Shown: piece after piece, positions 5,696 to 23,870 of the stretch
How the letters are laid out: every line of letters begins with the position of its first letter
How positions within the stretch are numbered: position 1 is the stretch's first letter
Assembly: GCF_900289195.1 (NCBI RefSeq)
Contig: NZ_OMOH01000013.1
Span: 1 to 23,870, forward strand
Direction: 5' to 3'
DNA from: Propionibacterium ruminifibrarum
GTDB taxonomy: Bacteria; Actinomycetota; Actinomycetes; Propionibacteriales; Propionibacteriaceae
Length of the DNA: 23,870 nucleotides
Position numbers and translations under genes: made by a program
Notes under the pieces: generated by a model
Seen by the model: only the letters and a program-made list of their open reading frames with translations
What the model was told of the DNA's origin: nothing
Database searches by the model: none

Positions 5696-5738
5696 GGCGA
5701 GACTCCTTGAGGGATCGAGCTCTGACGGGTCCGGCCGG

Positions 5739-7073: not shown

Positions 7074-7153
7074 GGTCTTCCTCTCACTCGCCAGGCTCCC
7101 TGCGCGCCGGGCCGGCTGTCGCGGTGCCGGACCGCCGGCGCGCGGGAGATTAA

Positions 7154-7196
7154 ACCCGGGTTCACCACAAAAAATAGTGGGTCGGTGGTCCCGGGT
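7154..7196 (-). promoter_or_regulatory. Candidate narK-narGH promoter/operator: a nested inverted repeat around an A6 tract.
   Basis: ACCCGGG(7154-7160)/CCCGGGT(7190-7196) and ACCAC(7164-7168)/GTGGT(7185-7189) flank AAAAAATA. On the minus strand the centre reads TATTTT (7176-7171), a TANNNT -10-like hexamer about 90 nt upstream of the narK ATG. Function is inferred only. Confidence 0.3.
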
Positions 7197-7398
7197 GCCA
7201 CTCGGGGTGGCGGAGCGCAGTGGCCCTCGCCTCGTGCTCGGCGGGCTGCGTCGGCCCGCAGCGGTGGTGCCGGGGCCGCCCGCCGCCCGCCAGAAGGCCG
7301 GCCCGGCGTCGGTGAGGCGATCCTTCGGGCCGGCGCGGACGGTACCGGCTGTCTGGCGGCAGGTCCTCGTAGCTCATGGCGGGGTGGCCAGGGGATAT

Positions 7399-8433
7399 TC
7401 AGCCGCCGATGCGGCTCATCGTGCGGCTGGGGGTGGCGAACTCGGCGCTGTCGAGGCCGTGGGCGGCCGGCTTGGCCCACATCGCGTCCTGCCACGCCCG
7501 GGCGAGCGCGGCGTCGTCGGCGCCGGCCCGCAGCGGCCCGCGCAGGTCTGTTTCGCCCGTCGAGAAAAGGCAGCTGCGCAGCTGCCCGTCCGCGGTCAGC
7601 CGGGTGCGGTCGCAGGCCTCGCAGAAGGGGGCGCTCACCGAGGCGATGATGCCGACCGTGCGGGCGGGGTCGCCGTTCACATGCCACAGGCGTGCGGGGG
7701 CGTGCGGGTCGTCCACCGGCGCCGGGCTCAGGCGGTGCGTCCTGCCGAGCAGGGCGAGGATGTCGTCCGCGGTGATGAGCCGACCGCGCCGCCAGGCCTC
7801 GAGGGGGCCGATCGGCATCTGCTCGATGAAGCGCAGCTGGACGCCCGCATCGAGGCAGAAGTCGAGCAGCGCCGGGGCGTCGGTGTCGTTGACCCCGCGC
7901 AGGAGCACCGCGTTGACCTTCACCGGTGTCAGCCCGGCGCGCTGGGCGGCGGCGATCCCGGCGAGCACGTCGGGCAGGCGGTCGCGGTGGGTGATCCGCG
8001 CGTAGTGCTCGGCGTCGGGCGTGTCGAGCGAGACGTTGACGCGAGTCAGGCCGGCGTCGGCCAGGGCCTGCGCCCGGCGGGCGAGGCCGAGGCCGTTCGT
8101 GGTGAGCGCCAGCTCGGGGGTCACGCCCTGGTCGGTGCGCAACGAGGCGGCCTCGGCGACGATCGACTCCAGGCCGCGGCGCAGCAGCGGTTCGCCGCCG
8201 GTGAACCTGATCGTCCGGATGCCCAGCCGTTCGACGCCGATACGGCACAGGCGGGATACCTCGGCGTCGGTGAGGGTTTGCTCGGTGGGCAGCCAGTCGA
8301 GGCCCTCCGGCGGCATGCAGTAGCTGCAGCGCAGGGTGCAGCGGTCGGTCAGCGAGACGCGCAGGTCGCGGGCGACCCGGCCGAACCGGTCGACGAGGGC
8401 GCCTGGGATGGCGCCGTGCTGCTGCGCGTCCAT
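7399..8433 (-). CDS. moaA: GTP 3',8-cyclase MoaA (radical SAM, molybdenum cofactor biosynthesis step 1), 344 aa.
   Basis: The internal Met MDAQQHGAIPGALVDRFGRVARDLRVSLTDRCTLRCSYCMP carries the CxxxCxxC radical-SAM motif. A second cluster is at SAPFCEACDRTRLTADGQLRSCLF, and the C-terminus ends in GG. The upstream 150 codons of track ORF 7399-8883 are low-complexity and overlap mobA on the other strand. Confidence 0.93.
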   Translation of the reverse strand: MDAQQHGAIPGALVDRFGRVARDLRVSLTDRCTLRCSYCMPPEGLDWLPTEQTLTDAEVSRLCRIGVERLGIRTIRFTGGEPLLRRGLESIVAEAASLRTDQGVTPELALTTNGLGLARRAQALADAGLTRVNVSLDTPDAEHYARITHRDRLPDVLAGIAAAQRAGLTPVKVNAVLLRGVNDTDAPALLDFCLDAGVQLRFIEQMPIGPLEAWRRGRLITADDILALLGRTHRLSPAPVDDPHAPARLWHVNGDPARTVGIIASVSAPFCEACDRTRLTADGQLRSCLFSTGETDLRGPLRAGADDAALARAWQDAMWAKPAAHGLDSAEFATPSRTMSRIGG

Positions 8434-8440
8434 GCCTGCG

Positions 8441-8446
8441 ACTCTA
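8441..8446 (-). promoter_or_regulatory. Candidate -10 hexamer (TAGAGT) giving a leaderless moaA transcript.
   Basis: The minus strand reads CCATTAGAGTCGCAGGC-ATG. TAGAGT fits TANNNT and ends 7 nt before the A of the moaA ATG, and there is no Shine-Dalgarno. The same TTAGAGT heptamer recurs at 10742-10748 upstream of mog. Confidence 0.3.
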
Positions 8447-8527
8447 ATGGCCCCGCCGCGGCCGCCGGATCGCCGCGAGCGCGCGTTCGCCGTGGGCGGT
8501 GACACCGGCAGGGGGCATGATCGGGTC

Positions 8528-9178
8528 ATGACCACGATCCCTGGGCCCGGCGGCCGACCGGTCTCGTGGCCCGCCGGAGGCGGAACCATCCACGGCATCG
8601 TCCTGGCCGGCGGCACCGGCGAACGCCTCGGCCGGGTGAGCAAGGCCGACATCGTCCTGGGCGGGCGGCGGCTGCTCGACCGGGTGCTGGACGGCCTGCG
8701 GCCCGCCGTGAACGGGACCCTCGTCGTCGTCGCGCCGGACTCGGTGCAGGTGCCCGCGGGCTGCCTGCGCACCCTGGAGGACCCGCCGGGCGGCGGCCCG
8801 CTGGCCGGTGTCGCGGCGGGCCTGGCCGTGCTGCCCGCCCCGACCGGGGCCGGCGAGTTGGTGCTCGTGTGCGGCGTCGACACGCCGGGGGCCGGCGCGC
8901 TCGCCGGGCGGCTCGGGCAGGCGCTCGCCGGGAACCCGGGCCACGACGGGGCCGTCGCCGTCGGCGGCGAGCCCGAACCCTACCGGCAGTACCTGCAGGC
9001 CCTGTACCGACGCGACCGGCTCGCCGGGCTGCTCGGCCGGGTGCCGGTACGCGATCGCGGGGTGACCCGCACGCTGCGCGTCCTCGACCTCGTCGAGGTG
9101 GCCGTGCCGGCCGACGTGTGCCGTGACCTCGACAGCCCGGCCGACCTGGCCTGGTGGGCCGACCGGCTGGGCGACTGA
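8528..9178 (+). CDS. mobA: Molybdenum cofactor guanylyltransferase MobA-like (NTP_transf_3 family), 216 aa.
   Basis: IHGIVLAGGTGERLGRVSKADIVLGGRRLLDRVL matches the LAGGxxxRxG...K nucleotide-binding N-terminus of MobA. It is divergent from moaA. The start was chosen at ATG 8528 (MTTIPG), in frame with track ORF 8336-9178. Confidence 0.8.
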   Translation: MTTIPGPGGRPVSWPAGGGTIHGIVLAGGTGERLGRVSKADIVLGGRRLLDRVLDGLRPAVNGTLVVVAPDSVQVPAGCLRTLEDPPGGGPLAGVAAGLAVLPAPTGAGELVLVCGVDTPGAGALAGRLGQALAGNPGHDGAVAVGGEPEPYRQYLQALYRRDRLAGLLGRVPVRDRGVTRTLRVLDLVEVAVPADVCRDLDSPADLAWWADRLGD

Positions 9179-9264
9179 CCCGAGGATGGCGAAATGGAGC
9201 GTAGCCGGTTGGCAGAATGACTGATTCGAGGATGGCAAAATGGAGCGTAGCCGGTTGGCAGAAT
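9173..9264. repeat. 46-bp tandem direct repeat (2 copies, 43/46 identical), with a degenerate third copy to about 9300.
   Basis: Copy 1 is 9173-9218 (GACTGACCCGAGGATGGCGAAATGGAGCGTAGCCGGTTGGCAGAAT). Copy 2 is 9219-9264, with 3 substitutions. Copy 1 contains the mobA stop codon. GC is visibly lower than in the flanks. Confidence 0.9.
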
Positions 9265-9330
9265 GGTCGATAGAGCGTTGGTGGATGGCTGGCGACGCGC
9301 TGTCCGGCTGACTGGGAAGGGGATGCACCC

Positions 9331-10605
9331 ATGCTTGCCACACCAGACGGCGACGCCCCTGGCGGCTATCTGCCGCGTTATCTGGACAGTGAGATCGAGG
9401 AGCTTCTCAGCGAACTCCCGGCATTGGCCATCGATGGCGCCAAGGGGGTCGGCAAGACCGAGACCGCCTCCCGGCACGTCGACGTCGTTCTCGAACTCGA
9501 CTCCCCTGAGGTGCGCCAGCTCGTCGAGCTGGACATGACGACCCAGTTGCAACGTGCCGAGCGGTTGTGCGTGGACGAGTGGCAGAAGTACCCGCCCGTC
9601 TGGGACGGCGTGCGCAGGCTCGTCGACAAGGGCTCGGCGACCAGGTTCGTCCTGACTGGTAGCGCCACGCCGACGACGGGTGACACCCATTCCGGGGCGG
9701 GCCGTATCGTCTCGGTGCGGTTGCGCCCGTTGTCGCTCGCGGAACGCAGGTCGACAACTCCGACGATCTTCCTGTCCGAGCTGTTCGCGGGAACTGCCCA
9801 GATCGGCGGTGAGACGGACTTCCAGGCCGCCGACTACGCACGGGAGATCTGCGCAAGCGGTCTTCCAGGGATCAACCCACTGTCGCCGCGGGCGCGGCGA
9901 GCAGCATTGGACGGTTACGTCGAGCGGATCATCGACCGTGACATCCCCGAGCTTGGCGCCACGGTGCGTCACCCGGCCTCGCTGAGGGCATGGCTGAGCG
10001 CCTTCGCCGCGGCGTCCTCGACGACTGCCGGCCATGCGACCCTGATGCGGGCGGTCGCTCCGGGGGAGCCCGCCATGCCGGCCAGGAGCACGGCCCGGGT
10101 GTATAAGGAACTGCTGGCCAGGTTGTGGATCCTCGACCCGATTCCAGCCTGGCTTCCGACGATGGCGCCATTGTCACGTCTGACGAAGGGCGACAAGCAC
10201 CAACTGTGCGATCCCGGCCTGGCGGCACATCTGCTGGGTGTCACCGAGCAGAAGCTGCTCAGCGGTGTCGCTGGCTCGGGGGAGGTTTTCGGACAACTCT
10301 TCGAGTCCCTGGCGGCCCTGTCCCTGCGGGCCGCGGCCAGCGGCTGTGAGGCCAAGGTGCATCACCTGCGGACACGCGACGGCCTGCACGAGGTCGACCT
10401 GATTGTCGAACGGTTCGACGGCTCGGTCATCGCCTTCGAGGTCAAACTCGCCAGAGTCGTCGGGGACCACGAGGTACGGCACCTGAACTGGCTCGGTGAC
10501 CAGCTGGGCGGCCGGCTGGTGGACAAGGTGGTGCTCACCGCCGGGCGGGCCGCCTTCCGGCGCCCGGACGGCGTGGCGGTCATCCCCTTGGCGATGCTCG
10601 GCTGA
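9331..10605 (+). CDS. AAA-family ATP-binding protein with a DUF4143-type C-terminal domain (COG1373-like), 424 aa.
   Basis: It has Walker A DGAKGVGKTE, Walker B-like LCVDEWQ, and the pattern TGSATP...GRIVSVRLRPLSLAE typical of AAA_14/DUF4143 ATPases. GGGAAGGGGA lies upstream of the ATG. GC is 36/60 at 9361-9420, below the flanking genes. Confidence 0.8.
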   Translation: MLATPDGDAPGGYLPRYLDSEIEELLSELPALAIDGAKGVGKTETASRHVDVVLELDSPEVRQLVELDMTTQLQRAERLCVDEWQKYPPVWDGVRRLVDKGSATRFVLTGSATPTTGDTHSGAGRIVSVRLRPLSLAERRSTTPTIFLSELFAGTAQIGGETDFQAADYAREICASGLPGINPLSPRARRAALDGYVERIIDRDIPELGATVRHPASLRAWLSAFAAASSTTAGHATLMRAVAPGEPAMPARSTARVYKELLARLWILDPIPAWLPTMAPLSRLTKGDKHQLCDPGLAAHLLGVTEQKLLSGVAGSGEVFGQLFESLAALSLRAAASGCEAKVHHLRTRDGLHEVDLIVERFDGSVIAFEVKLARVVGDHEVRHLNWLGDQLGGRLVDKVVLTAGRAAFRRPDGVAVIPLAMLG

Positions 10606-10831
10606 CCGGTTGCCGTCCGGCTGACACTGCGCGAGTCGCCGAATGCGAGAACGACCTTCGTCCCGGTCGTGTGCGGCCGCGCCGCCCGGTGGCCGTCGGG
10701 CGTCAGGGCAGGATCGTACTGTCCCTCCGGCGGCGGCTGGCTTAGAGTGGCGATGAGTTGTGTTCGCAGCCATCCGGGCCCAGGGCGCAGGTGCGACGAC
10801 AAGTGCCCGGGGCGTGGGGAGAGGATGCCAG

Positions 10832-11341
10832 ATGCCCGACCGCAACGACTTCGACCTGTCGACGATCACCGCAGCCGTCATCGTCATGAGCGACCGTGTG
10901 CTGTCGCAGGAACACCCCAACACCGCAGGTGAGGCATGCCGTGACCGGCTCCTGACAGAGGGGCTGTCCGACGTCGCGCTCAGCGTCGTCCCCGAGCGGA
11001 GGCAGGTGCTCGACGAGGAGCTCCGCGCCGCGGTCACCGCCGGCCGTCGCCTCGTCATCGTGCTGGGCGGCACGGGGTTCCGCCGCAACAACGACGCCCC
11101 CGAGGTCGTCCGCGACCTGGTCGAGGTGGAGCTGCCCGGCGTCGCCGAACTGATCCGCGCCCACGGGGCGGAGCACAGCCCGCTGGCCCCGCTCTCACGC
11201 GAGGTCGTCGGAGTCACCGGCAAGGACTCCGACGCCGCCCTGCTCCTCTGCTCGCCCGGCTCCAAGGGCGGCATGAACGACACGCTCGACGTGTTGCTGC
11301 CGCTGCTGCGCCACGTCTACATCCAGCTCGCCGAGAGCTGA
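10832..11341 (+). CDS. mog: MogA/MoaB-family molybdopterin adenylyltransferase-like protein, 169 aa.
   Basis: AAVIVMSDRV...LVIVLGGTGFRRNNDAPEVV...PGVAELIR...SREVVGV...LLLCSPGSKGGMND matches the MoCF_biosynth (MogA/MoaB) fold motifs (GGTG, PGS). The ATG at 10832 is preceded by GGGGAGAGGA. Confidence 0.85.
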   Translation: MPDRNDFDLSTITAAVIVMSDRVLSQEHPNTAGEACRDRLLTEGLSDVALSVVPERRQVLDEELRAAVTAGRRLVIVLGGTGFRRNNDAPEVVRDLVEVELPGVAELIRAHGAEHSPLAPLSREVVGVTGKDSDAALLLCSPGSKGGMNDTLDVLLPLLRHVYIQLAES

Positions 11342-11629
11342 ACTACACCGGGCCCAGAATGAGTCCGATGAACGACGTGTCGACGTAGTGGATCACACTT
11401 CCTCACGATCTTCCTTGAGCAGTTGCTCAAGTGTCACGCCTGACGGCATCGAGTGCCGGGCCCATGGGGTGTGGGTTCGTCGCTGGGGGCTTGTGGCTCT
11501 GCCCTCGCGGATGAGGCGTTCAAAAGGTGTCGGTGTCGAGTGCCGAAGCGGGGGAGCGGTTGGGCGCCTTGTTGATCCGCTGATGCGGGTCAACTACGCG
11601 GAATCATCCGATTTTGCTATGGTTCATCC

Positions 11630-12037
11630 GTGCCAATGCATCGCATTTCCGACATCAGCAGACTGCTCGGGGTCTCGGACGACACGGTGCGCCGCTGGAT
11701 CAGCACCGGCCTCGTGAAGGCTGGCCAGGACGACCAGCACGTGCTGCGGGTCGACGGCGCCTCGCTGGCCGAGCACCTGCTCGCCCAGCAGCACGACCAC
11801 GCCGGCCTCGAGGACGGCTCGCGGTTCCAGTCGGCGCGCAACCACATCCAGGGCATCGTCACCGCCATCAAGTCCGACCCGGTCATGAGCCAGGTCGACC
11901 TCGTGAGCGGCAACTCCCGCATCGTCTCCCTCATCTCCACCGAGGCCGTCGAGGCCCTCGGGCTCGAGGTGGGTTCCATCGCGGTGGCCCAGGTGAAGGC
12001 GACCAACGTCTCCCTCGAACTGCCCGTCACCTCGTAG
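11630..12037 (+). CDS. Molybdate-responsive-type regulator: N-terminal excisionase/MerR-like HTH plus C-terminal Mop/TOBE molybdate-binding domain, 133-135 aa.
   Basis: The HTH is HRISDISRLLGVSDDTVRRWISTGLV. The Mop/TOBE-like region is SARNHIQGIVTAIKSDPVMSQVDLVSG...VSLISTEAVEALGLEVGSIAVAQVKATNVSLE. It lies immediately upstream of modA. The start is ambiguous: GTG 11630 or ATG 11636. Confidence 0.75.
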   Translation: MPMHRISDISRLLGVSDDTVRRWISTGLVKAGQDDQHVLRVDGASLAEHLLAQQHDHAGLEDGSRFQSARNHIQGIVTAIKSDPVMSQVDLVSGNSRIVSLISTEAVEALGLEVGSIAVAQVKATNVSLELPVTS

Positions 12038-12115
12038 CGTCACCGCGTCCGCGACCGGTGATTCCGCGTCACCCGGCAGCAGCCGGAGCACCGCGGCTCC
12101 GCCCGGACCGTCACC
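12025..12115 (+). promoter_or_regulatory. Four direct copies of CGTCACC between the Mop-type regulator gene and modA; candidate operator array.
   Basis: Exact heptamers occur at 12025-12031, 12038-12044, 12067-12073 and 12109-12115, with a partial inverted copy GGTGA at 12057-12061. Function is inferred from position only. Confidence 0.35.
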
Positions 12116-12165
12116 GGGCGCCATCCAGGCCCCGGCACGAGGGGCCCTCTCATGCAAGGAGCATC

Positions 12166-12945
12166 ATGAAACTCGTCCGCAGCATCGGGTCCGCCGCCGT
12201 CGCCGTCGCGCTGTCGGCAACCGTGGTCGGCTGCTCGTCCGGGGACGCCTCCTCGGACTCCTCGCAGGACGAGACCACCGTTCTCACCGTCTACGCCGCC
12301 GCCTCGCTGACGGCGAGCTACGACGAGATGGCCACCGCCTTCGAGACCGAGCACCCCGGCGTCGACGTTCAGTTCAACTACGCCGGCTCGCAGACACTCG
12401 TCGACCAGATCACCCAGGGCGCCCCCGCCGACGTGCTGGCCACGGCCAACACATCGACGATGAGCAAGGCCGTCGACGCCGGTGCCGTCGGCGAGACCAC
12501 CGAGTTCGCCACCAACGTCCTCACGCTCATCACACCCGCCGGGAACCCGGCCGGTGTCACGGGGCTGGACGACTCGCTCGACGCCGCCCAGCTCGTCATC
12601 TGCGCGCCCGAGGTGCCCTGCGGCTCGGCCACCCAGCAACTGACCGAGCTGCTCGGCGTCACCCTCAACCCGGTGAGCGAGGAGCAGCAGGTCACCGACG
12701 TGGTCGGCAAGGTCACCAGCGGTGAGGCCACCGCGGGAATCGTCTACCGCACCGACGCCATGGAGGCCGGCGACCAGGTCACCGAGGTGCCGATCGAGGG
12801 CGCCGACCAGGTCGTCAACCACTACCCGATCGCCACCGTCAACGAGAGCGAGCACGCCGAACTGGCCCAGCAGTTCGTCGACTACGTCCTGTCCGACGCC
12901 GGCCAGGCCACGCTCAGCAAGTACGGCTTCAGCCCGACCGCCTGA
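12166..12945 (+). CDS. modA: Molybdate ABC transporter substrate-binding lipoprotein ModA, 259 aa.
   Basis: MKLVRSIGSAAVAVALSATVVGCSS is a lipoprotein signal with a VVGC lipobox. The ModA-type motif is LTVYAAASL. CAAGGAG lies 5 nt upstream of the ATG. The upstream part of track ORF 11614-12945 is not coding in this frame. Confidence 0.9.
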   Translation: MKLVRSIGSAAVAVALSATVVGCSSGDASSDSSQDETTVLTVYAAASLTASYDEMATAFETEHPGVDVQFNYAGSQTLVDQITQGAPADVLATANTSTMSKAVDAGAVGETTEFATNVLTLITPAGNPAGVTGLDDSLDAAQLVICAPEVPCGSATQQLTELLGVTLNPVSEEQQVTDVVGKVTSGEATAGIVYRTDAMEAGDQVTEVPIEGADQVVNHYPIATVNESEHAELAQQFVDYVLSDAGQATLSKYGFSPTA

Positions 12946-12977
12946 GCGCGGGCGGCCCGGACGAGACGAGCAGAGCG

Positions 12978-14936
12978 GTGAGAGCACGCTCGCGGCGCGT
13001 CACGCCACCGGTCCCGGTGCCGGCCTGGCTGGCGGTGCTGGCCGCCCTCGGCGTGCTCTACCTGGTGATCCCGCTCGCCGGCATGGGCGCGGCCGTGCCC
13101 TGGGGGCGGTTCGGCGAGCTCATCACCGGCGAGGCCTCCCGGGACGCCCTCTGGCTGAGCCTGCGCACCTGCGCGGCCGCGACCGTCACCGACCTGCTGC
13201 TCGGCGTGCCTCTGGCGGTCGTGCTGTCCCGGTCCTGGCGCGGGGTGCGGCTCGTCCGCATACTCGTCGCCCTGCCCCTGTCGCTGCCGCCGGTCGTCGC
13301 CGGCCTGGCGCTGCTGGCCACCTTCGGGCGCCGGGGGCTGGTGGGGCAGGTGCTCGAGGGGGTCTGGGGCGTCCGGGTCGGCTTCACGACACTGGCCGTC
13401 GTCATGGCGCAGGTCTTCGTCTCGCTGCCCTTCCTCGTCATCACCCTCGAAGCCGCCCTGCGGTCCCGGCCGTCGGGGCTGGCCGAGACCGCCGCGTCGC
13501 TCGGGGCCGGGCCCACCAGGGTGCTGCGCTCGGTCACGCTTCCCCTCGTCGCACCGGCCCTGGCCCGCGGCACCGCGCTGTCACTGGCCCGCTGCCTGGG
13601 CGAGTTCGGGGCGACGCTCACCTTCGCCGGCTCGCTGCAGGGCGTCACCCGCACCCTGCCGCTGCAGATCTACCTGGCCCGAGAGACCGACTCCGACAAC
13701 GCCCTGGCGCTCGGCGCCCTGCTCGTCGTCGTGGCCGCAATCGTCGTCGCCGTCACCGAGTGGACGCCCGGGCGTCGCAGCGGCCCCGTGAGCGAGGGGG
13801 AGCAGGCGGCCGCCGAGCCGGCCGGCCCCGGCCCGGCCCGCTCCCTGCCCGCCGCGCCGGTCGACCTCGACGGGGGCCTGTCGGCCAGGGACTGGCGCAT
13901 GAGGCTTCAGATCCCCGCCGGGCAGGTGCTCGCCGTCATGGGGCACAACGGCTCGGGCAAGTCGACGCTCGCCGGGATCGTCGCCGGGCGGCTCCGCCTG
14001 GACAGCGGCCGCCTGCGCATCGGCGACCGGCTCGTGGATGGCGAGCACACCTTCGTCGAGGCACGGCGCCGCGGCGTGACGATGCTCGGCCAGGACCCGC
14101 ACGTCTTCGGCCACATGAGCGTGCTCGACAACGTCGCCTTCCCGCTGCGCTGCCGGGGCGTGCCCCGAGGCAGGGCCAGGCAGGGCGCTGCCGAACAGCT
14201 CGCCGCGGTCGGCTGCGCGCACCTGGCCGGACGCCGTGGCTCCCAGCTGTCCGGGGGCCAGGCCGCGCGGGTCGCCCTGGCCAGGGCGCTGGCTTTCGAA
14301 CCGGCCGTCCTCGTCCTGGACGAGCCGACCGCCGCCCTCGACGTCGAGGCGTCCTCGCACGTCACCCGGGTGCTCGCCGCCCGCCTGGCCGGGGCGGGCA
14401 CGACAACGATCCTCGTCACCCACGACGTGCTGGAGGCCCTCGAACTGGCCGACGCCATGATCGTCCTCGACCACGGCCGGCTCGTCGAACGGGGCGAGCC
14501 GGCCCGGCTGATCGCCCGCCCGGCCAGCGCCTTCACCGCCCGCCTGGCCGGGCTCAACATCGTCGACGGCCCGCTCGTGGTGGGCGACGACGGGCTGCCC
14601 GGCGTGGCCGTCGGCGACCGCCGCCTCGCCGCCGCGCAGCTGCCCGAGGGCGCCACGCTCGCGGCGGGCGACCGGGTCGCCCTGGTCTTCGCCCCCGAGG
14701 CGGTCGGCCTGCACGCCGCGCCGCCGTCCGGCTCCCCGCGCAGCGCCCTGCCGGGCGCCGTCGAGGCCGCCGACGAGGCGGGCGGGCTCGTCAGCGTCCG
14801 GCTGGGGCTGGATGGCGGCGCCGTCATCCGCGCCCGGGTGACGACCGCGGCCTGGGCCGAACTCGGCGCCCCGGTCGGCGGGCGGCTGTGGGCCGTCGTC
14901 AAGGCCACTCAGGTGCGAGTGGTGCCGCTGGCGTGA
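12978..14936 (+). CDS. modB: Fused molybdate ABC transporter permease (ModB, about aa 1-265) and ATP-binding subunit (ModC, about aa 300-652, with a C-terminal TOBE-like domain), 652 aa in one ORF.
   Basis: The permease EAA-loop region is LEAALRSRPSGLAETAASLGAGPTRVLRSVTLPL. A Pro/Ala-rich linker follows. The ATPase part has Walker A GHNGSGKST, the signature LSGGQAARVALARAL and Walker B VLVLDEPTAALD. The C-terminus VRLGLDGGAVIRARVT...LWAVVKATQVRVV is TOBE-like. It uses a GTG start. Confidence 0.88.
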   Translation: MRARSRRVTPPVPVPAWLAVLAALGVLYLVIPLAGMGAAVPWGRFGELITGEASRDALWLSLRTCAAATVTDLLLGVPLAVVLSRSWRGVRLVRILVALPLSLPPVVAGLALLATFGRRGLVGQVLEGVWGVRVGFTTLAVVMAQVFVSLPFLVITLEAALRSRPSGLAETAASLGAGPTRVLRSVTLPLVAPALARGTALSLARCLGEFGATLTFAGSLQGVTRTLPLQIYLARETDSDNALALGALLVVVAAIVVAVTEWTPGRRSGPVSEGEQAAAEPAGPGPARSLPAAPVDLDGGLSARDWRMRLQIPAGQVLAVMGHNGSGKSTLAGIVAGRLRLDSGRLRIGDRLVDGEHTFVEARRRGVTMLGQDPHVFGHMSVLDNVAFPLRCRGVPRGRARQGAAEQLAAVGCAHLAGRRGSQLSGGQAARVALARALAFEPAVLVLDEPTAALDVEASSHVTRVLAARLAGAGTTTILVTHDVLEALELADAMIVLDHGRLVERGEPARLIARPASAFTARLAGLNIVDGPLVVGDDGLPGVAVGDRRLAAAQLPEGATLAAGDRVALVFAPEAVGLHAAPPSGSPRSALPGAVEAADEAGGLVSVRLGLDGGAVIRARVTTAAWAELGAPVGGRLWAVVKATQVRVVPLA

Positions 14937-16694: not shown

Positions 16695-16734
16695 GGTGAG
16701 TGAACAATGGGCCTGGTCAACGGCATCACTCACC
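16695..16734 (+). promoter_or_regulatory. Perfect 9-bp inverted repeat GGTGAGTGA-N22-TCACTCACC just upstream of the P-type ATPase start.
   Basis: The arms are at 16695-16703 and 16726-16734. The AGGAGA RBS is at 16741-16746 and the ATG at 16755. It could be an operator or a 5'-UTR hairpin; function is inferred. Confidence 0.35.
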
Positions 16735-16754
16735 ACGCACAGGAGACACCCGCG

Positions 16755-19580
16755 ATGACCACGACCGCTCCAGCCGGTCCCTCAACACCCGACAGTGACG
16801 CCGCCTGGCACCCCTCGGTGCTGAGCCCCGACGAGGTGCTCGCCCGCATGGGTGCCGACGCCGAGCAGGGTCTCAGCCCGGCCGAGGCGGCGTCCCGGCT
16901 GGAGCGCCACGGCCCCAACGAGTTGGCCGGCGCCCCGCCGGTGCCGGCATGGCGCCGTTTCCTCGCCCAGTTCGCCGACCCGCTCGTCTACCTGCTGCTC
17001 GCCGCCGTCGGCATCTCGGTCGCCGCCTGGGTGCTCGAGGGCGCCGCCGGCGTGCCCATCGAGGCCGTCGTCATCGTCGCGATCCTGCTCGCCAACGCCA
17101 TCATCGGTTTCGTCCAGGAGAACCGGGCCGACGACGCAGTCGCGGCCCTGTCGACCATGACTGCCGCCACCTCGACGGTGCTGCGCGGCGGGCGGCTGGA
17201 CACGATCCCCTCCGCCGAGGTCGTGCCCGGCGACATCCTCGTCCTGGCCGAGGGCGACGCGGTCGCCGCCGACGCCCGTCTCATCCAGGCCAGCGCGCTG
17301 CGCATCCAGGAGTCCTCGCTGACCGGCGAGTCCGAGGCGGTCGACAAGACGCCAGAGGCGCTCGACGCCCCGGCCGGCATCGGCGACCGCCACGACATGG
17401 TGCACAAGGGCACCGACGTGGTCTCCGGCGTCGGGCGGGCCGTCGTCACCGCCACCGGCATGGCCACCGAGGTGGGCCGCATCGCCACCCTGCTCGACGA
17501 GACGCCCGAGGAGGACACGCCCCTGCAGCGCGAGATCGCGTCGATCTCCAAGGCGCTCGGCCTCGTCGTCATCGCCATCGCGGTCATCGTCATGGGCGTC
17601 ATGGTGCTGGTCAACGGCGTGCGCTCGTTCCACGAGCTCGTCGACGTGCTGCTCACGGGCGTCTCGCTCGCCGTCGCCGCGGTCCCCGAGGGCCTGCCGG
17701 CGATCCTCACCGTCGTGCTCGCGACCGGCGTCCGGGCGCTCGCCCGCCGCAACGCGGTCATGAAGACACTCCACTCGGTGGAGACCCTCGGTTCCTCGTC
17801 GGTGATCTGCTCGGACAAGACCGGCACCCTCACCCGCAACGAGATGACCCTGCGCACCGTCGTCTCGGCTGCGGGACGGGCCGAGCTGACCGGCACCGGC
17901 TACGCACCCGACGGCGAACTGGTCGTCACCGGCGACCGGGACGCGGTGCGGGCGGTGCTCGTGGGCGGTGCCCTGGCCAATGACGCGCAGCTGCACCATG
18001 ACGACGGCGAGTGGACGATCCAGGGCGACCCCACCGAGGCGGCCTTCCTCGTCGCCTGCGCCAAGTCCGGTCTCGACGCCGAGCTGGCCGGCTGGCGGCG
18101 CCGCAGCGAGGTGCCGTTCAGCTCCGAGCGCAAGATGATGTCGGTGCTCGTCGAACGAGACGGGCAGCGGCGGGTCTGGTCCAAGGGCGCCCCCGACGTG
18201 CTGCTCGGGCGCTGCACCGACGAGCGCGTCGGCGGGGTGGTCCAGCCGCTCACCGAGACCCGCAGGGCCGAACTGCTCGGCCTCATCGAGGATCTGTCCG
18301 CCAACGGCTACCGCACCCTCGGCGTCGCTGCCCGTCCCGGTGACGGCATCGGCGAGCTGACCGAGGGCGACGAGCAGCGGCTCGCCTGGACCGGCGTCGT
18401 CGGCATCATCGACCCGCCGCGCAAGGAGGCCGCCCAGGCGATCGGGCAGGCCCACCGGGCGGGCATCCGCACCATCATGATCACCGGCGACCACCCGGTG
18501 ACCGCCTCGCGCATCGCCGCCGACCTGGGCATCAGCGGCGACCGCGAGCCGCGGGCCCTCACCGGCGCCCAGCTCGACGGGCTCGGGCCCGGCCGGCTGC
18601 CCGGCGCCGTGCGGGACGTGGACGTCTACGCCCGGGTCGCGCCCGAGCACAAGCTGCGCATCGTCGAGGCCCTGCAGTCCGACGGCAGCACGGTGGCGAT
18701 GACCGGGGACGGCGTCAACGACGCCCCCGCCCTCAAACGCGCCGACATCGGCGTCGCGATGGGCATCACCGGCACCGAGGTGACCAAGCAGGCCGGGCGG
18801 ATGATCCTGGCCGACGACAACTACGCGACGATCGTCGCCGCGGTCCGGCAGGGCCGCGTGATCGTCGACAACATCAAGAAGTTCCTGCGCTATCTGCTCA
18901 GCTCGAACATGGGCGAGGTGTGCACGGTGCTGTTCGGCGTGCTGCTCGCCGGGGCGCTCGGCCTGTCCGACCCGGCGAACCCCGGCGCCACCTTCGTGCC
19001 GCTGCTCGTCACCCAGATCCTGTGGATCAACCTCGTGACCGACTCGACGCCGGCCCTGGCCATGGGCGTCGACCCCGAGATCGACGACGTGATGGCCAGG
19101 CCCCCGCGCCGGCAGACCGACCGCATCCTCGACCGGGCCATGTGGATCAGGATCATCGCCGTCGGCGCCGTCATGGGCCTGGTGACCCTCGCCGTGTACG
19201 ACTTCGCGCTGCCCGGCGGCCTGTTCACCGGCATGCTGTCCGGCGTGCCCACCGGCGAGCAGTTCGCCGTGGCCCGCACGATGGCGTTCAGCACCCTCGT
19301 GTTCGCCCAGCTGTTCAACGCCCTCAACTCGCGTTCGGCCGACGGCTCGGCCTTCCACCGGCTGTTCAGCAACCGCTGGCTGTGGGCCTCGCTCGGCCTG
19401 GGGGTCGTCCTGCAGGTCGCCGTCGTCGAGATCGGCTTCCTGCAGTCGGCCTTCGGCACCACCTCGCTCGACCTGGCCCACTGGGGCGTCGTCGTGGCCG
19501 CGTCGAGCCTCATCCTCGTCTACGAGGAGATCGTCAAGGCCGTCCACCGGGCCGTGACCCGGGCTCGGCGGAAGCGGTGA
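16755..19580 (+). CDS. Cation-transporting P-type ATPase, P2 (SERCA/CtpF-like, probable Ca2+) subfamily, 941 aa.
   Basis: Motifs present are TGESEAV, CSDKTGTLTRN, PEGLPA in M4, MITGDHPVTA and TGDGVNDAPALKRADIGVAMG. The start was chosen at ATG 16755, 8 nt after AGGAGA; the track ORF begins at 16707. Confidence 0.93.
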   Translation: MTTTAPAGPSTPDSDAAWHPSVLSPDEVLARMGADAEQGLSPAEAASRLERHGPNELAGAPPVPAWRRFLAQFADPLVYLLLAAVGISVAAWVLEGAAGVPIEAVVIVAILLANAIIGFVQENRADDAVAALSTMTAATSTVLRGGRLDTIPSAEVVPGDILVLAEGDAVAADARLIQASALRIQESSLTGESEAVDKTPEALDAPAGIGDRHDMVHKGTDVVSGVGRAVVTATGMATEVGRIATLLDETPEEDTPLQREIASISKALGLVVIAIAVIVMGVMVLVNGVRSFHELVDVLLTGVSLAVAAVPEGLPAILTVVLATGVRALARRNAVMKTLHSVETLGSSSVICSDKTGTLTRNEMTLRTVVSAAGRAELTGTGYAPDGELVVTGDRDAVRAVLVGGALANDAQLHHDDGEWTIQGDPTEAAFLVACAKSGLDAELAGWRRRSEVPFSSERKMMSVLVERDGQRRVWSKGAPDVLLGRCTDERVGGVVQPLTETRRAELLGLIEDLSANGYRTLGVAARPGDGIGELTEGDEQRLAWTGVVGIIDPPRKEAAQAIGQAHRAGIRTIMITGDHPVTASRIAADLGISGDREPRALTGAQLDGLGPGRLPGAVRDVDVYARVAPEHKLRIVEALQSDGSTVAMTGDGVNDAPALKRADIGVAMGITGTEVTKQAGRMILADDNYATIVAAVRQGRVIVDNIKKFLRYLLSSNMGEVCTVLFGVLLAGALGLSDPANPGATFVPLLVTQILWINLVTDSTPALAMGVDPEIDDVMARPPRRQTDRILDRAMWIRIIAVGAVMGLVTLAVYDFALPGGLFTGMLSGVPTGEQFAVARTMAFSTLVFAQLFNALNSRSADGSAFHRLFSNRWLWASLGLGVVLQVAVVEIGFLQSAFGTTSLDLAHWGVVVAASSLILVYEEIVKAVHRAVTRARRKR

Positions 19581-19729
19581 ACGAACCACCGGCACCACTG
19601 CCCTGACTGTCGCCCACGGGGCGAGAGATCGGCAGCGGGAGTTCCCCCGGACCACTGGCCAGCGCCACCCGGCCGGCAACGACCGCAGTGGACCCCGGGA
19701 ATTCCCCCGACTGGTGATGCCTGAACCGG

Positions 19730-19758
19730 CTGACGGCGCGTCTCGCGTGGCGTAGATT
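19730..19758 (+). promoter_or_regulatory. Candidate promoter for the cas gene remnant: CTGACG-17 nt-TAGATT.
   Basis: The -35-like CTGACG is at 19730-19735 and the -10-like TAGATT at 19753-19758, with a 17-nt spacer. It lies in the non-coding junction upstream of the csb2 ORF. This is pattern match only. Confidence 0.25.
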
Positions 19759-19911
19759 GCCGCCCAAGGGCGACAGGGCACGGCTTTCTCAAGGACAGGA
19801 TCTTTCGGATCATGACAGTGCGCAGCAGCGGGTCGGGACGAGGAGCCGGCGCGATTCGTCACGTGGGTTGGTTTGCCGGGTCGAGGCCGTCGCCGAGAAA
19901 GGGGCCGGGCC

Positions 19912-20700
19912 ATGCCTGATCGCTCTCGCGGCGTGGCGTCCCGGCGGGTGGCCGCCATCCGCTGGGAGCTGCGCACCCGCCGTCCCTATCCGGCCTGGGC
20001 GGGTATTCTCGCCACCGATCGGCTGCGCCATCTCGTGGTCTCCGGGCTCGACGAGTCCACCGACCCGGAGGACTTCCTGCTCACCGGGCACGGCGCCGGG
20101 CCGCTGACGGAGCATCGTTTCGGTTACCACGCGCACGCCCACTGGCTGTGGATCGAGGACGACGAGCAGCACGTCGTGGGGCTGGCGCTGTGGTGCAGGC
20201 CCGGGCTCGCCGCACCGCAGCGGGACCGGGTGCTCAGCGTCAGGCGCCTGAGCCGTCCGGATTTCAATGATGCGGGTTTTCAGCCCGGCGATCTGAGCAT
20301 CAGCGGTGTCGGTTCGGCCGCCGACGCCCTGCCGGAGCTCGGGAGCGGGCTTGTGAGCACGGCATGGGCGTCGGCTGTCCCCTATCTGCTGACGCTGCAC
20401 ACGAAACGGTCCCGCCAGTGGGAGGATGTTGTCGCCCAGGACGTGCAGCGGTACCTGGATCATTACTACGGGGTGGGTGCTGTGAGGCTCATCACTCTTC
20501 AGTTCGGCAGGGCGGCGTCGAATTACCGGACGAGTCGGTGGGATCCGGCGGATTCCCCCTCTGAGGCCGTCTGGATCGAGCGCATGGAGGTGGACGTCCC
20601 CCTGACCGGGCCGGTCTGCCTCGGCCGCCACAGCCACTTCGGTTTCGGCCGCTTCGTGCCGCTGGCCGACGGGCTGGTCACCGATCCGGGCCTGCCATGA
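19912..20700 (+). CDS. csb2: Type I-G (I-U) CRISPR-associated protein Csb2 (Cas5/Cas6-family RAMP), C-terminal portion only; it appears 5'-truncated (262 aa from ATG 19912, 275 aa from TTG 19873).
   Basis: Csb2-like mid-protein segment: LTGHGAGPLTEHRFGYHAHAHWLWIEDDEQHVVGLALWCRPGL. Terminal glycine-rich RAMP loop: GRHSHFGFGRFVP. The stop overlaps the cas4-cas1 ATG (ATGA), as in type I-G operons. From recollection, full-length Csb2 proteins are roughly twice this size and begin with a Cas5-like domain that is absent here. The in-frame stop at 19813-19815 limits any upstream extension. Confidence 0.6.
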   Translation: MPDRSRGVASRRVAAIRWELRTRRPYPAWAGILATDRLRHLVVSGLDESTDPEDFLLTGHGAGPLTEHRFGYHAHAHWLWIEDDEQHVVGLALWCRPGLAAPQRDRVLSVRRLSRPDFNDAGFQPGDLSISGVGSAADALPELGSGLVSTAWASAVPYLLTLHTKRSRQWEDVVAQDVQRYLDHYYGVGAVRLITLQFGRAASNYRTSRWDPADSPSEAVWIERMEVDVPLTGPVCLGRHSHFGFGRFVPLADGLVTDPGLP

Positions 20701-22348
20701 GCGAATACGCGGCCCAGCCCGGTTTTCTCCCGGCGAGGATGCTGAACGAATTCGTCTACTGTCCGCGGCTGTTCTACTTCGAGTGGGTGGATCAGCGCCG
20801 GGAGTCGAACGACGACATGACCGAGGGCAGAATCGCCCATCGGCCGGTGGACTCCCGCGGAGGCCGCATGCCCGAAGAAGGCGGGGAATCGGGTCCGCGA
20901 ACCACGTACTCCGTGGCGCTCAGCGATGAGGAGTGGGGGCTGTCCGCGGTCATCGACCGGGTGGACCATCGTGAGGGTGTCAGGGTCCGGTCGATCACAA
21001 GAAGGGGCACCCACAGATCGATGGGGAACCGTGGGCTGCAGATCGCGCTCAGGTGCTCGCCTACGCGGCACTGCTCGACGCAGCCGGGTACACCGTCGAT
21101 CATGCCGAACTCTTCTACGCCGAAGATCATGTGACGGTTCCGGTTGCCTGGGATGACGATGCCGCGACCGAGCTGCGTGGGCTGGTCGCAGCGGCTCGGG
21201 ACCTTGCGGAGTCACCGGTTCCTCCGCCCCCGCTCATTGACAGTCCACGCTGCCCCCGCTGCTCGTTGGCTGGGCTGTGCCTTCCCGATGAGACGAATGC
21301 ACTGACCGAACGGCATGCGGCGACCAAGAAAAGAGTGCTTCCCCGCAACCCTGATGAGCGGCCCCTGTACGTGACCGAGCAGGGGGCGTATGTCTCATCC
21401 AAGGGTGGCCGTATCGTCGTCAGCAAGGACGGTGAGGAGCTGGCCGGCCTGCGTCTTCTCGACATCTCACAGCTGTGCGTGTTCGGTCATGTCCAGATCA
21501 GTACGCAGGCCATTACTCGCCTCCTGTCGGCTGGTGCCCCAGTGCTGTGGATGAGCTACGCGGGATGGCTCAATGGCTGGGCCCAGGGGAGCCCGAGCAA
21601 ACATGCTCAGCTCCTGAGGCGACAGGTATTGTCACCCAACGGCGCGGCGATCGCCAGCCAGATCATCTCGGGCAAAATACGTAACCAGCGGACGATGCTG
21701 CGCCGTAATGCGAAGCCTGCGATCGAACCAGCGGTGCTGGACAGCCTTCGTGAACTGGCCGAGTCGGCTGCTGAAGCCGACAGTTCTGCGTCATTGCTCG
21801 GCTACGAAGGAACTGCGGCCAGGCTCTATTTCGAGAACTTCACCCAGATGCTCAGTCCCCAAGCCGAATTTGGTCAGGAGTTCGATGCCAATGGGCGGAC
21901 GCGCAGGCCTCCAAAGGACCCGATCAATGCTCTGCTGGGGCTGTGCTACTCCCTTCTCGTCAAGGATCTCGTCGCTGTCTGCCTTGGGGTGGGGCTCGAC
22001 CCCTACATAGGTGTGCTCCACGCGTCACGATATGGGCGCCCGGCGCTGGCGCTCGATCTTGCGGAGGAGTTCCGGCCCCTGGTGGCCGACTCCGTGGTAC
22101 TGAACGTGATGAACAACGGCGAGATCGGCTCTGAGGACTTCACGCGCAGAGGCATCGGTTGTCAACTGACGAAACAGGGACGCAAGAAACTCATCGGCGC
22201 CTATGAGCGAAGGCTTGAGACAGAGGTCACGCATCCGGTCTTCGGCTACAGGATCAGTTACCGCAGGTGCCTTGAGGTTCAGGCCCGTCTGCTCGCCGCG
22301 GTGCTGATCGGAGAGATCCCAGGGTACAGGCCCTTCGTGACGAGGTGA
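20697..22348 (+). pseudogene. cas1: Cas4-Cas1 fusion (type I-G/I-U adaptation nuclease-integrase) interrupted by a frameshift near 20985-20990. Restoring one base gives about 550 aa.
   Basis: Frame A (20697-21134) starts with Cas4 motifs LNEFVYCPRLFYFEWV...GLSAVIDRVDHREGVRV and then degenerates. Frame B is open from 20975 and reads PVDHKKGHPQIDGEPWAADRAQVLAYAALLDAAGY...SPRCPRCSLAGLC, which is the Cas4 D..E.K/QxxxY motifs and the C-terminal Cys cluster. It continues as Cas1 (...GYEGTAARLYFENF...RRPPKDPINALLGLCYSLL...GLDPYIGVLH...ALALDLAEEFRP). Confidence 0.85.
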
Positions 22349-22638
22349 GGAACATGGCGAGACGCCGCTATCTGATCGCCTACGACATAGCGAATCCGAA
22401 AAGGCTGAGGGCCGTTGTCAAGTTGATGGAGGACTTCGGTACCCGGCTGCAGTACTCAGTCTTCCTGTGTGATCTCAGGCGGGCAGAGCTCGCGGTCTGG
22501 CGTGCGGCCCTGGCGGACGTTGTCGAGTTGAAGGAGGACTCGGTGATCGTCATAGACTTGGGGGCAGTGGGTGTGACCCCGATCGAGGTCATCGGTCTGG
22601 CGAGGAACCTTCCCGGTCACGGCGCCGTCGTCGTGTGA
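22345..22638 (+). CDS. cas2: CRISPR-associated endoribonuclease Cas2, 94-97 aa.
   Basis: RRRYLIAYDIANPKRLRAVVKLMEDFGTRLQYSVFLCDL is the canonical Cas2 N-terminal beta-alpha-beta pattern. GTG 22345 overlaps the cas1 stop (GTGA). An alternative ATG lies at 22354. Confidence 0.87.
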   Translation: MRNMARRRYLIAYDIANPKRLRAVVKLMEDFGTRLQYSVFLCDLRRAELAVWRAALADVVELKEDSVIVIDLGAVGVTPIEVIGLARNLPGHGAVVV

Positions 22639-22810
22639 GGCCTGCGAGAGGTCCTGCCCCGCCGGTGCCCCGCGGGACCGCTCGCAGCCTTGCCAGAGGC
22701 CTGTTAGCGTTGACAAAACCATAGCGATGACCTACGATCTGGGAGTGCTGGTGGGACCGCTCGCAATCGGGTTCGTTTCCCCTTGTCAGATGTCACAAAA
22801 TCTGATAGCG
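22639..22810 (+). other. CRISPR leader (172 bp between cas2 and the first repeat).
   Basis: The call rests on position. GC drops toward the array. It holds a 13-bp direct repeat GGGACCGCTCGCA at 22674-22686 and 22753-22765. A repeat-like fragment GTTTCCCCTTGTCAGATG at 22775-22792 resembles the repeat 5' half ATTTCCCCATCTATTCAGATG. Confidence 0.7.
22710..22738 (+). promoter_or_regulatory. Candidate CRISPR leader promoter TTGACA-17 nt-TACGAT.
   Basis: There is an exact -35 consensus TTGACA (22710-22715), a 17-nt spacer, and a -10-like TACGAT (22733-22738). It lies 72 nt upstream of repeat 1 and is oriented toward the array. Confidence 0.5.
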
Positions 22811-23870
22811 ATTTCCCCATCTATTCAGATGGGGCTCCATTGAGACCTGACCTTGGGCTTGTACTTGCGCAGGAGCTCGCCCCTATTTCCCCATCTATTC
22901 AGATGGGGCTCCATTGAGACCCCCACGAGCCGAGCGTGGTGTTGTCTCCGGCGTCGAATTTCCCCATCTATTCAGATGGGGCTCCATTGAGACGTGCCGT
23001 TCACGAAGGGGATGAACCGCTTCTTGCCCATTTCCCCATCTATTCAGATGGGGCTCCATTGAGACCACACCTCGTGCCGAGTAGCGCTGGTCCTCTCGGT
23101 CGATTTCCCCATCTATTCAGATGGGGCTCCATTGAGACCCCTCGCGCCGACGATCTTCTCGCGCATTCGGTCCAGCCATTTCCCCATCTATTCAGATGGG
23201 GCTCCATTGAGACCGGTGCCGGTGACCTGGCTGATACCGATCATGGCCAGATTTCCCCATCTATTCAGATGGGGCTCCATTGAGACATTTGGCATGGTGG
23301 TGTGCCTCACTTTCGCTTCGTATTTCCCCATCTATTCAGATGGGGCTCCATTGAGACACCTGACCGCCGGCTGCAAGAACCCGTCCGGGCAGGCATTTCC
23401 CCATCTATTCAGATGGGGCTCCATTGAGACAGTACACCGCCAGCGAGGACTCGTGGGCCACCCTGCACATTTCCCCATCTATTCAGATGGGGCTCCATTG
23501 AGACCTATCCTGCACGGCAACCGAAACAGGAATACCCTGAATTTCCCCATCTATTCAGATGGGGCTCCATTGAGACCCGACGGTGTTCTTGGACGGCCGG
23601 TCGTTCGGAATCTCATTTCCCCATCTATTCAGATGGGGCTCCATTGAGACATGCCGCGGCCCCAGTAAACGCCATCACCAGACCCCTGAATTTCCCCATC
23701 TATTCAGATGGGGCTCCATTGAGACAAGCTCAACAATTGCATAAGGTTCGGGGCACTCATCATTTCCCCATCTATTCAGATGGGGCTCCATTGAGACAGT
23801 GGCATGTCCCCACGGTTGCGTCTGACGGGTGCGTATTTCCCCATCTATTCAGATGGGGCTCCATTGAGAC
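22811..23870 (+). CRISPR. CRISPR array with 15 identical 36-nt repeats (ATTTCCCCATCTATTCAGATGGGGCTCCATTGAGAC) and 14 unique spacers of 35-39 nt. The array is cut by the window end.
   Basis: Repeat starts: 22811, 22885, 22958, 23030, 23103, 23178, 23251, 23322, 23395, 23469, 23541, 23615, 23690, 23762, 23835. Each repeat has an internal 8-bp stem CCCCATCT/AGATGGGG with loop ATTC. The 3' end ATTGAGAC resembles the ATTGAAAC handle of the type I-C/I-G repeat families and sets the orientation as plus. Confidence 0.98.

Follow-up and report, generated by a model that had tools for sequence, protein, structure and literature searches.

What does a CRISPR array serve when it is accompanied by adaptation genes and by what looks like half an effector gene? 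This question is raised by the first 23,870 nt of a 55,269-bp contig of Propionibacterium ruminifibrarum JV5, the stretch of DNA that was analysed here and is called the window. Its right edge falls inside a CRISPR array, which is preceded by cas2, a Cas4/Cas1 fusion gene and an open reading frame (ORF), here named Y, that resembles the C-terminal half of the type I-G protein Csb2. The initial annotation described an effector-less type I-G locus with half a csb2 and offered three readings, namely a recently amputated locus, an adaptation-plus-processing module feeding an effector encoded elsewhere, and an undescribed minimal variant. We consider it likely that this segment belongs to a hybrid type III-D CRISPR-Cas locus, of which it forms the half responsible for CRISPR RNA (crRNA) biogenesis and for adaptation. 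The whole locus would then read ATPase gene, Y, cas4/cas1, cas2, leader and array, followed on the opposite strand, and converging on the array, by cas7-insertion, csx19, cas7-2x, a cas7-cas5 fusion, cas10 and a TIR-SAVED gene. Comparison with related loci traces Y, the Cas4/Cas1 fusion, Cas2 and the repeat to type I-G, and shows that the lineage of JV5 and P. australiense has lost the type I-G interference genes and kept the remainder. The user of Y, the adaptation genes and the array is most likely the type III-D effector. The segment itself is not type I-G, as the interference genes are absent, and Y does not belong to the two-domain Csb2 family.

The short open reading frame upstream of cas4/cas1

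Y is located on the forward strand at 19912-20700 when translated from an ATG (262 aa), or at 19873-20700 from a TTG (275 aa), and corresponds to PROPJV5_2370 (SPF69421). It was assigned as a stand-alone Cas6-family protein from its matches to the C-terminal halves of the TIGR02165 and PADLOC Cas56g profiles, from its fold and from its homologues. Y aligned to profile positions 248-491/492 of TIGR02165 (Csb2) only, with an E value of 4e-9 and a score of 36.2 bits, below the curated cutoff of 45 bits. The end-to-end, above-cutoff match that defines membership in Csb2 was thus not obtained. The match to PADLOC Cas56g (E 1e-30) covered profile positions 222-447/449, and the Cas56g models were likewise matched in their C-terminal halves only. 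The initial annotation, whose quoted motifs are present in the ORF, was right that only the Cas6-like half of Csb2 is covered. No Pfam match was found, and the sole NCBIfam match, to Csb2, was the one below cutoff. Because the Y family passes no curated model, annotation pipelines call Y hypothetical or mislabel it as Csb2.

The description of Y as half a csb2 did not hold. Y has no Cas5-like domain at its N terminus, and some 12 residues precede the opening strand of its Cas6 fold. Its homologues, 17 of which were found in a search of 5.8 billion proteins with identities down to 41%, are all 217-278 aa long. When 1.84 billion representatives were searched with a profile of Y, the short family was returned first and then full-length Csb2 proteins, the latter through their C-terminal halves only. 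The AlphaFold model of Y (predicted local distance difference test, pLDDT, 88; predicted template modelling score, pTM, 0.85) contained a complete fold of two RNA recognition motifs (RRMs) from residue 13 onwards. The top nine matches in a Foldseek search of the PDB were all Cas6-family proteins with a probability of 1.00; the best were Cas6b (4z7k), in the lead, and the Cas6 structures 5yi6, 3i4h and 3pkm. The Cas6 domain of Csb2 had the same best structural match, as reported by Shangguan et al. (PMC9638904). The search of the PDB sequences with the Y profile gave zero matches, and the fold comparison alone succeeded. Besides the two-RRM fold, Y carries the C-terminal glycine-rich loop of the Cas6 superfamily, GRHSHFGFGRF. 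Y is a whole gene, full length for its family, and a member of the Cas6 superfamily by its predicted fold. A genuinely short family is what the initial annotation itself had named as an outcome that would overturn its description.

The motifs HAHAHW and SHFGFGR are retained in Y, and four histidines (H60, H75, H77 and H242) are invariant across the Y family and common to the C-terminal halves of canonical Csb2. In the complete related loci Y coexists with a full-length Csb2 of 471-527 aa. A motif comparison that covered the csb2 C-termini of four such loci (L002, L003, L007 and L010), together with Y and canonical Csb2, found SHFGFG and HAHAHW(LW) retained in Y and in the aligned canonical halves. 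The co-resident Csb2 lacked the histidine at the SHFGFG position in three of the four loci, where the glycine loop reads SRLGLG, RNLGFG or ARLGLG, and had RHLGFG in L002; HAHAHW was absent from all four. Since the co-resident Csb2 mostly lacks these motifs and Y has them, Y is probably the working Cas6 of this type I-G variant, and we predict it to be a crRNA-processing endoribonuclease. The ratio of nonsynonymous to synonymous substitution rates (dN/dS) of Y was 0.09-0.26, and its stop codon overlaps the start of cas4 (ATGA).

We also considered whether Y could be Csb3, and rejected it. The gene upstream of Y, not Y, fits the published descriptions of Csb3 as Cas8-like, with the identification being uncertain. 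In complete loci this upstream gene is recognised by two models, that of PADLOC for the Cas8g large subunit and the "Cas3-extension" of NCBIfam.

Effector genes beyond the array and the missing type I-G interference genes

In the complete genome of P. australiense the sequence past the array encodes, convergently on the opposite strand, a TIR-SAVED protein, Cas10, two large fusions of repeat-associated mysterious proteins (RAMPs), a 173-aa protein and a TIGR03986-type RAMP, the cas7-insertion, which is split there by an IS630 insertion sequence (IS). In JV5 the first genes annotated after cas2 encode SPF69425 (598 aa), SPF69426 (173 aa) and SPF69427 (a 539-aa RAMP), on the same 55,269-bp contig as Y (SPF69421); the accessions in between, exactly three in number, match the two pieces of cas4/cas1 and cas2. 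The complete module of TIR-SAVED, cas10, cas7-cas5 fusion, cas7-2x, csx19 and cas7-insertion is present in L087, a read assembly of JV5. PADLOC matched SAVED_TIR (5e-125), Cas10 (2.5e-106), Cas10d (1.1e-55), Csx19 (2e-53), a large Cas7, a Cas7_IIId...Cas5_IIId fusion and a double Cas7_IIId, and the cas7-insertion matched TIGR03986. The five genes typical of a III-Dv-like effector, from cas10 through cas7-cas5, cas7-2x and csx19 to cas7-insertion, thus occur in that order in L087, outside the window, the fusion being recognised by its Cas7 and Cas5 parts. Cas10 has a GGDD motif at residue 321. No other cas6 was found in the type III-D module of L087. The initial annotation had foreseen that cas3, cas8u and cas7u might lie immediately beyond the distal end of the array; effector genes lie there in P. 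australiense and most probably in JV5, but they are of type III-D.

The linkage of the effector operon to the array was read directly in the complete P. australiense genome and in L007, a contig from an uncultured Propionibacterium. L007 (3425-16877) is a composite locus, with a full type I-G operon upstream of an array of which two repeats were recognised, and with type III-D genes downstream on the opposite strand (an intact 722-aa cas7-insertion, csx19 and the end of cas7-2x). As the same type III genes follow the array in L007, the ancestor would have been a composite in which type I-G and type III effectors surrounded one array.

In intact relatives the type I-G operon reads csb1, csb2, cas3, small cas8g, Y, cas4/cas1 and cas2. 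L007 is the nearest complete locus, its Y being 80% identical. Alignment with the window extends on either side of a 6.8-kb stretch of L007, csb1-csb2-cas3-small cas8g, to which nothing in the window corresponds. A tblastn search gave zero traces of csb1, csb2, cas3 and small cas8g in the window or the sister loci. The set that defines type I-G interference (cas3g, cas7g/csb1, csb2 and cas8g) is accordingly missing from both, as the initial annotation had said of the window, while its term "effector-less" reflects where the window ends and does not survive the type III-D genes beyond the array. A type I-G effector encoded in trans was not supported either: in a non-exhaustive search with Cas3g of the nearest complete locus, the best non-self homologue was 51% identical and the top 120 matches named none from these species.

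The left neighbour of Y, outside the CRISPR system, is a gene for a P-type (Ca2+-type) cation ATPase on the forward strand at 16707-19580, identified by NCBIfam and Pfam P-type ATPase matches; it stands directly upstream of Y in P. australiense and L016 as well. The layout of ATPase gene, Y, cas4/cas1, cas2 and array was found in several P. australiense assemblies, one of them a complete genome, and in a second P. ruminifibrarum-like lineage, which makes three lineages in all with a conserved junction. The comparison of synteny that the initial annotation had proposed thus yielded both a complete type I-G operon, in L007, and the same layout, in P. australiense. Between the lineages the synonymous divergence (dS) was 0.35-0.69, and dN/dS over Y, Cas1 and Cas2 was 0.07-0.26. 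As the layout is common to three lineages so far apart and the genes are so constrained, the loss is old and the remaining genes have been kept by selection. These are not the marks of a recent deletion followed by decay.

The junction itself, 331 bp of intergenic DNA at 19581-19911 on the forward strand, was confirmed as the distance between the ATPase stop (19580) and the ATG of Y. A block at about 19742-19830, with TAGATT at 19753-19758, is conserved in the window, L016, L017 and L012, which are without type I-G effector genes, and is absent from complete loci; it may be a promoter. Searches with tblastn and short-word blastn for small cas8g, cas3, csb1, csb2 and the csb1 upstream regions of complete loci found no remnants in the 331 bp. 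That the deletion placed Y behind the operon promoter is unsupported, the junction being without a match to the csb1 upstream regions. Those regions share, in L002, L003, L007 and L010, a TGTCAGTGCC-like motif after a T-run, which may be an operon promoter or operator and is absent from the window.

The locus is a mosaic. The ATPases of JV5 and P. australiense share 98-100% identity and the neighbouring genes 85-88%; in L016 the flanks are 98-100% identical and the cas genes only about 85%. This pattern suggests repeated recombination or transfer of the block at 16700-20700. ATPase and Y taken together are 95-100% identical between JV5 and P. australiense, and the adjacent PhzF and acetyltransferase genes 71-90%. 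In a metagenome contig (L022:7256-14650), type III genes are followed by csb1, csb2 and the first 35 codons of cas3, then, with small cas8g gone, by Y, cas4/cas1, cas2 and an array of at least 25 repeats. L022 represents a second, independent deletion, with its right edge again just upstream of Y.

Array, leader and adaptation genes

The array was located with a repeat finder on the forward strand at 22811-23870 and runs to the last base of the window. It consists of 15 exact copies of the 36-nt repeat ATTTCCCCATCTATTCAGATGGGGCTCCATTGAGAC and 14 different spacers, as counted by the initial annotation; the spacers are 35-39 nt long, and successive repeats start 71-75 nt apart. The hallmarks of a CRISPR array, from identical repeats and unique spacers to a leader and neighbouring cas1 and cas2, are all present. 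The leader (22639-22810, forward strand) is 89% identical to the P. australiense leader. It contains a strong promoter-like site, TTGACA-17 nt-TACGAT at 22710-22738, which with 10 of 12 matches was the only one of its kind in a promoter scan of 19400-23000. The repeat folds as an 8-bp hairpin (RNA fold, -13.8 kcal/mol), and the predicted cleavage, between CTCC and ATTGAGAC, falls 4 nt 3' of the stem and would leave ATTGAGAC as an 8-nt 5' tag on the crRNA. The geometry is the same as in the repeat processed by Csb2, whose isolated Cas6 domain folds, binds and cleaves the repeat alone, 4 nt 3' of the stem and with an 8-nt handle (PMC9638904).

From these features we propose that the leader promoter would drive transcription of the array, and that Y would bind the 8-bp hairpin of each repeat and cut 4 nt downstream, leaving the 8-nt tag ATTGAGAC. 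The tagged crRNA would be loaded by the type III-D complex. On binding of a target RNA, Cas10, with its GGDD motif intact, would make cyclic oligoadenylate, by which the TIR-SAVED effector would be activated. New spacers would be added by Cas4/Cas1-Cas2.

A search for the repeat elsewhere, suggested by the initial annotation, found it in the arrays of P. australiense, the only species returned among the species-representative genomes; zero spacers are common to JV5 and P. australiense, and the arrays of the lineages with this layout have the repeat but no spacer in common. The repeat was not found in metagenome and viral contigs, and a search for published work on CRISPR in these species gave nothing useful. 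In P. australiense LR134442 (L017:12912-17542), IS5- and IS1634-family elements interrupt the array, and an IS630 comes after it. Its spacers are partly duplicated (4=5, 15=16 with 17 nearly the same, and 18=19), and its terminal repeats have single-base variants.

The cas4/cas1 gene occupies 20697-22348 on the forward strand and was identified as the type I-G kind with NF049935 (cas4g_cas1g). It is not intact, which the initial annotation had missed. An ORF at 20697-21134 covers model positions 2-98 and an ORF at 21053-22348 covers positions 116-546; the second piece scored 583 bits, above the cutoff of 560, and the first 88 bits. The lesion is a 1-nt deletion (CCC to CC) at about 20986-20988, between the halves of the Cas4 nuclease motif, and by translation and alignment the homology in the second frame begins at 20990. 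A one-base repair gives a protein of 550 aa with 151 of the 152 residues that are invariant among 20 diverse homologues. Residue 289 of the repaired protein (about 21561-21563) is an alanine in JV5, where these homologues have the invariant glycine. The cas4 frameshift of P. australiense is independent and at another site, and intact cas4/cas1 alleles are found in three other contigs. On both counts a programmed frameshift was rejected. A sequencing error is unlikely to be behind the frameshifts, an independent assembly of the JV5 reads being identical over 12.9 kb. A P. australiense run from the same project as JV5, with the consecutive run accession, matched an independent complete genome at 100% over 3.4 kb, and therefore the JV5 frameshifts are probably real mutations.

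The cas2 gene, which the initial annotation had correctly listed, lies on the forward strand at 22345-22638 (alternative start 22354), encodes 94-97 aa and matched TIGR01573 and PF09827. Its dN/dS was 0.07-0.11, and that of the Cas1 part about 0.10-0.12.

Competing readings and relation to known systems

Several observations weigh against the reading that the window holds the processing and adaptation half of a type III-D system. The frameshift in cas4 of JV5 and the independent one in P. australiense mean that the systems of these two cultured strains may be non-functional. In JV5 a 1-nt G insertion also splits cas7-insertion into 598 and 137 aa, and the P. australiense assemblies, at least one of which is from the type strain, have an IS in cas7-insertion and IS elements in the array besides their cas4 frameshift. 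The type III genes have a dN/dS of about 0.4 between JV5 and P. australiense, with about 1.1 for Csx19 (L087:9478-9999 compared with L083:7304-7825) and about 0.1 for the adaptation genes, which points to relaxed constraint. Neither the whole array searched against phage and plasmid records nor three spacers searched against viral contigs gave a convincing protospacer match. For JV5, the proposed linkage of the type III genes to the array rests on the shared contig, on the consecutive accessions SPF69421-69427 and on the P. australiense genome. The presumed equivalence of His242 of Y to the catalytic histidine of Csb2 (H503/H520) comes from motif position only. Finally, the cleavage of this repeat by Y and the use of these crRNAs by the type III-D complex are predictions. 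One may argue that the architecture is right and that the JV5 system, adaptation as well as type III-D interference, is already a dead relic through its two frameshifts. The same two genes being damaged independently in P. australiense, the 100% match within the sequencing project that makes the mutations probably real, and the high dN/dS of the type III genes all speak for it. Both lesions are, however, single-base changes in short homopolymer runs with everything else intact, three other contigs have an intact cas4/cas1, neither the Cas1 part nor Cas2 is damaged, and Cas7-insertion could assemble even in two pieces. Other CRISPR systems can carry out adaptation in the absence of Cas4. We therefore regard a relic already dead as a serious though somewhat unlikely explanation. 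The system has clearly been maintained for long; it was under selection until recently, the JV5 copy may now be impaired, and the two cultured strains may be losing it.

The other explanations concern what the module was kept for. That a type I-G locus was recently amputated and is decaying without any effector, as the initial annotation had offered, would fit the absence of csb1, csb2, cas3 and small cas8g, the cas4 frameshifts of JV5 and P. australiense and the IS elements in the array of the latter. We find it very unlikely, because a type III-D module adjoins the array in both, because the layout and junction recur in three lineages at dS 0.35-0.69 with dN/dS 0.07-0.26, which speaks for an old loss under selection, and because the repaired Cas4/Cas1 keeps all but one of its invariant residues. 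Hardly any credence can be given to an autonomous minimal CRISPR variant of a Cas6-like protein, Cas4/Cas1, Cas2 and array only. The window holds nothing else and the module is under purifying selection, but such a variant would be without a nuclease or a target-binding component, and the adjacent type III-D genes explain its retention; the undescribed minimal variant of the initial annotation falls with it. Its remaining reading, a Cas6-like protein with Cas4-Cas1-Cas2 feeding an effector encoded elsewhere, came close to the truth, the effector being most likely the adjacent type III-D one; the claim of novelty falls with the short family of Y and the effector genes past the array. A different doubt is whether Y is a nuclease at all; it could be an inactive RAMP or an accessory of the adaptation complex, with the crRNAs made by another enzyme. 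Y is always directly upstream of cas4/cas1 and overlaps it, it stays with the adaptation genes in all deletion variants, even in L022, whose losses are confined to cas3 and small cas8g, and its cleavage activity is a prediction only. Csb1 can, according to a preprint, also cut repeats in Bifidobacterium (bioRxiv 10.1101/2022.08.19.504415). On the other side Y has a complete Cas6 fold and keeps the histidine and glycine-rich motifs as in canonical Csb2, which the co-resident Csb2 mostly lacks, and no other cas6 is in the locus. Type III-Dv, moreover, requires a separate Cas6 (PMC11026444). We take a non-catalytic role of Y to be improbable and keep to the reading in which Y supplies the type III-D effector with crRNAs.

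Among known systems, III-Dv of Synechocystis sp. PCC 6803 has the same effector content and order (cas10, cas7-cas5(-cas11), cas7-2x, csx19, cas7-insertion) and is likewise adjoined by a separate cas6, adaptation genes and an array (PMC11026444). A cyclic-oligoadenylate-dependent accessory effector and a short Cas10 with GGDD are common to both, and the Synechocystis repeat ends in 8 nt, ACTGAAAC, that are similar to the predicted tag ATTGAGAC. In contrast to Synechocystis, JV5 has a Cas6, a Cas4/Cas1 fusion and a repeat that descend from type I-G, TIR-SAVED instead of Csm6/Csx1 as its accessory effector, and an inverted block of Cas6, adaptation genes and array, towards which the effector operon is convergent. 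JV5 further differs in being an actinobacterium, in the frameshift of its cas7-insertion and in that only the Cas7 and Cas5 parts of the fusion were recognised. With type I-G, formerly I-U and known from Thioalkalivibrio sulfidiphilus, Geobacter sulfurreducens and Bifidobacterium animalis, JV5 shares a fusion that passes cas4g_cas1g (PMC9638904; bioRxiv 10.1101/2022.08.19.504415), a 36-nt repeat, the hairpin and the 8-nt handle 4 nt past the stem, and Y is homologous to the Cas6 domain of Csb2 that is active alone in vitro (PMC9638904). The JV5 locus differs in having no cas3, cas7g (csb1), csb2 or cas8g, and Y is, in the related complete loci, an extra gene beside a full Csb2. Stand-alone Cas6 proteins (Cas6b 4Z7K, P. 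furiosus 3I4H/3PKM, T. thermophilus 4C9D) have the two-RRM fold and the glycine-rich loop in common with Y and are, as Y would be, encoded apart from the type I and type III complexes that they provide with crRNAs. Sequence similarity to them is undetectable, however, TM-scores are only 0.4-0.5, and the conserved histidines of Y are placed as in Csb2.

Composite loci are an established arrangement: a type I system and a type III effector draw on a common array, a common Cas6 and a common set of adaptation genes. JV5 has in common with them one array and adaptation module for the type III effector, and differs in that the type I arm is deleted, as it is in P. australiense. We know of no described pairing of I-G with III-D. 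A wider proposal, in which we place slightly less than even confidence, is that Y represents an unnamed stand-alone Cas6 family that arose from the Cas6 domain of Csb2 and does the crRNA cutting in one type I-G variant. One array would then feed, in composite loci of the L007 kind, both the DNA-targeting type I-G Cascade and the RNA-targeting type III-D complex, and the lineage of JV5 and P. australiense would be a natural experiment, with the I-G arm discarded and with Cas6, adaptation genes and I-G-type repeats captured for good by III-D.

The leftmost two thirds of the window are unrelated to the CRISPR locus. A housekeeping cluster for nitrate reductase and molybdenum at 342-14936 comprises narG-like and narH-like genes, an MFS transporter gene, moaA, mobA, a MoCF biosynthesis gene, a ModE-like regulator gene, modA and a modBC fusion. 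At 9173-9265, between the mobA-like and the AAA_14/DUF4143 genes, a 46-nt unit occurs twice with 93% identity.

Once the sequence past the array is considered, an apparently effector-less locus with a "half gene" resolves into a familiar sharing of tasks. In Propionibacterium, a type III-D system that has TIR-SAVED and fused subunits would take its Cas6, its Cas4/Cas1 fusion and its repeats from type I-G, and its relative L007 keeps the I-G and III-D effectors around one array. Y adds a conserved stand-alone Cas6 family that lies outside the curated models. The locus is a hybrid of known modules and not a new kind of system; it joins the cases of module exchange between CRISPR types and introduces no new principle.

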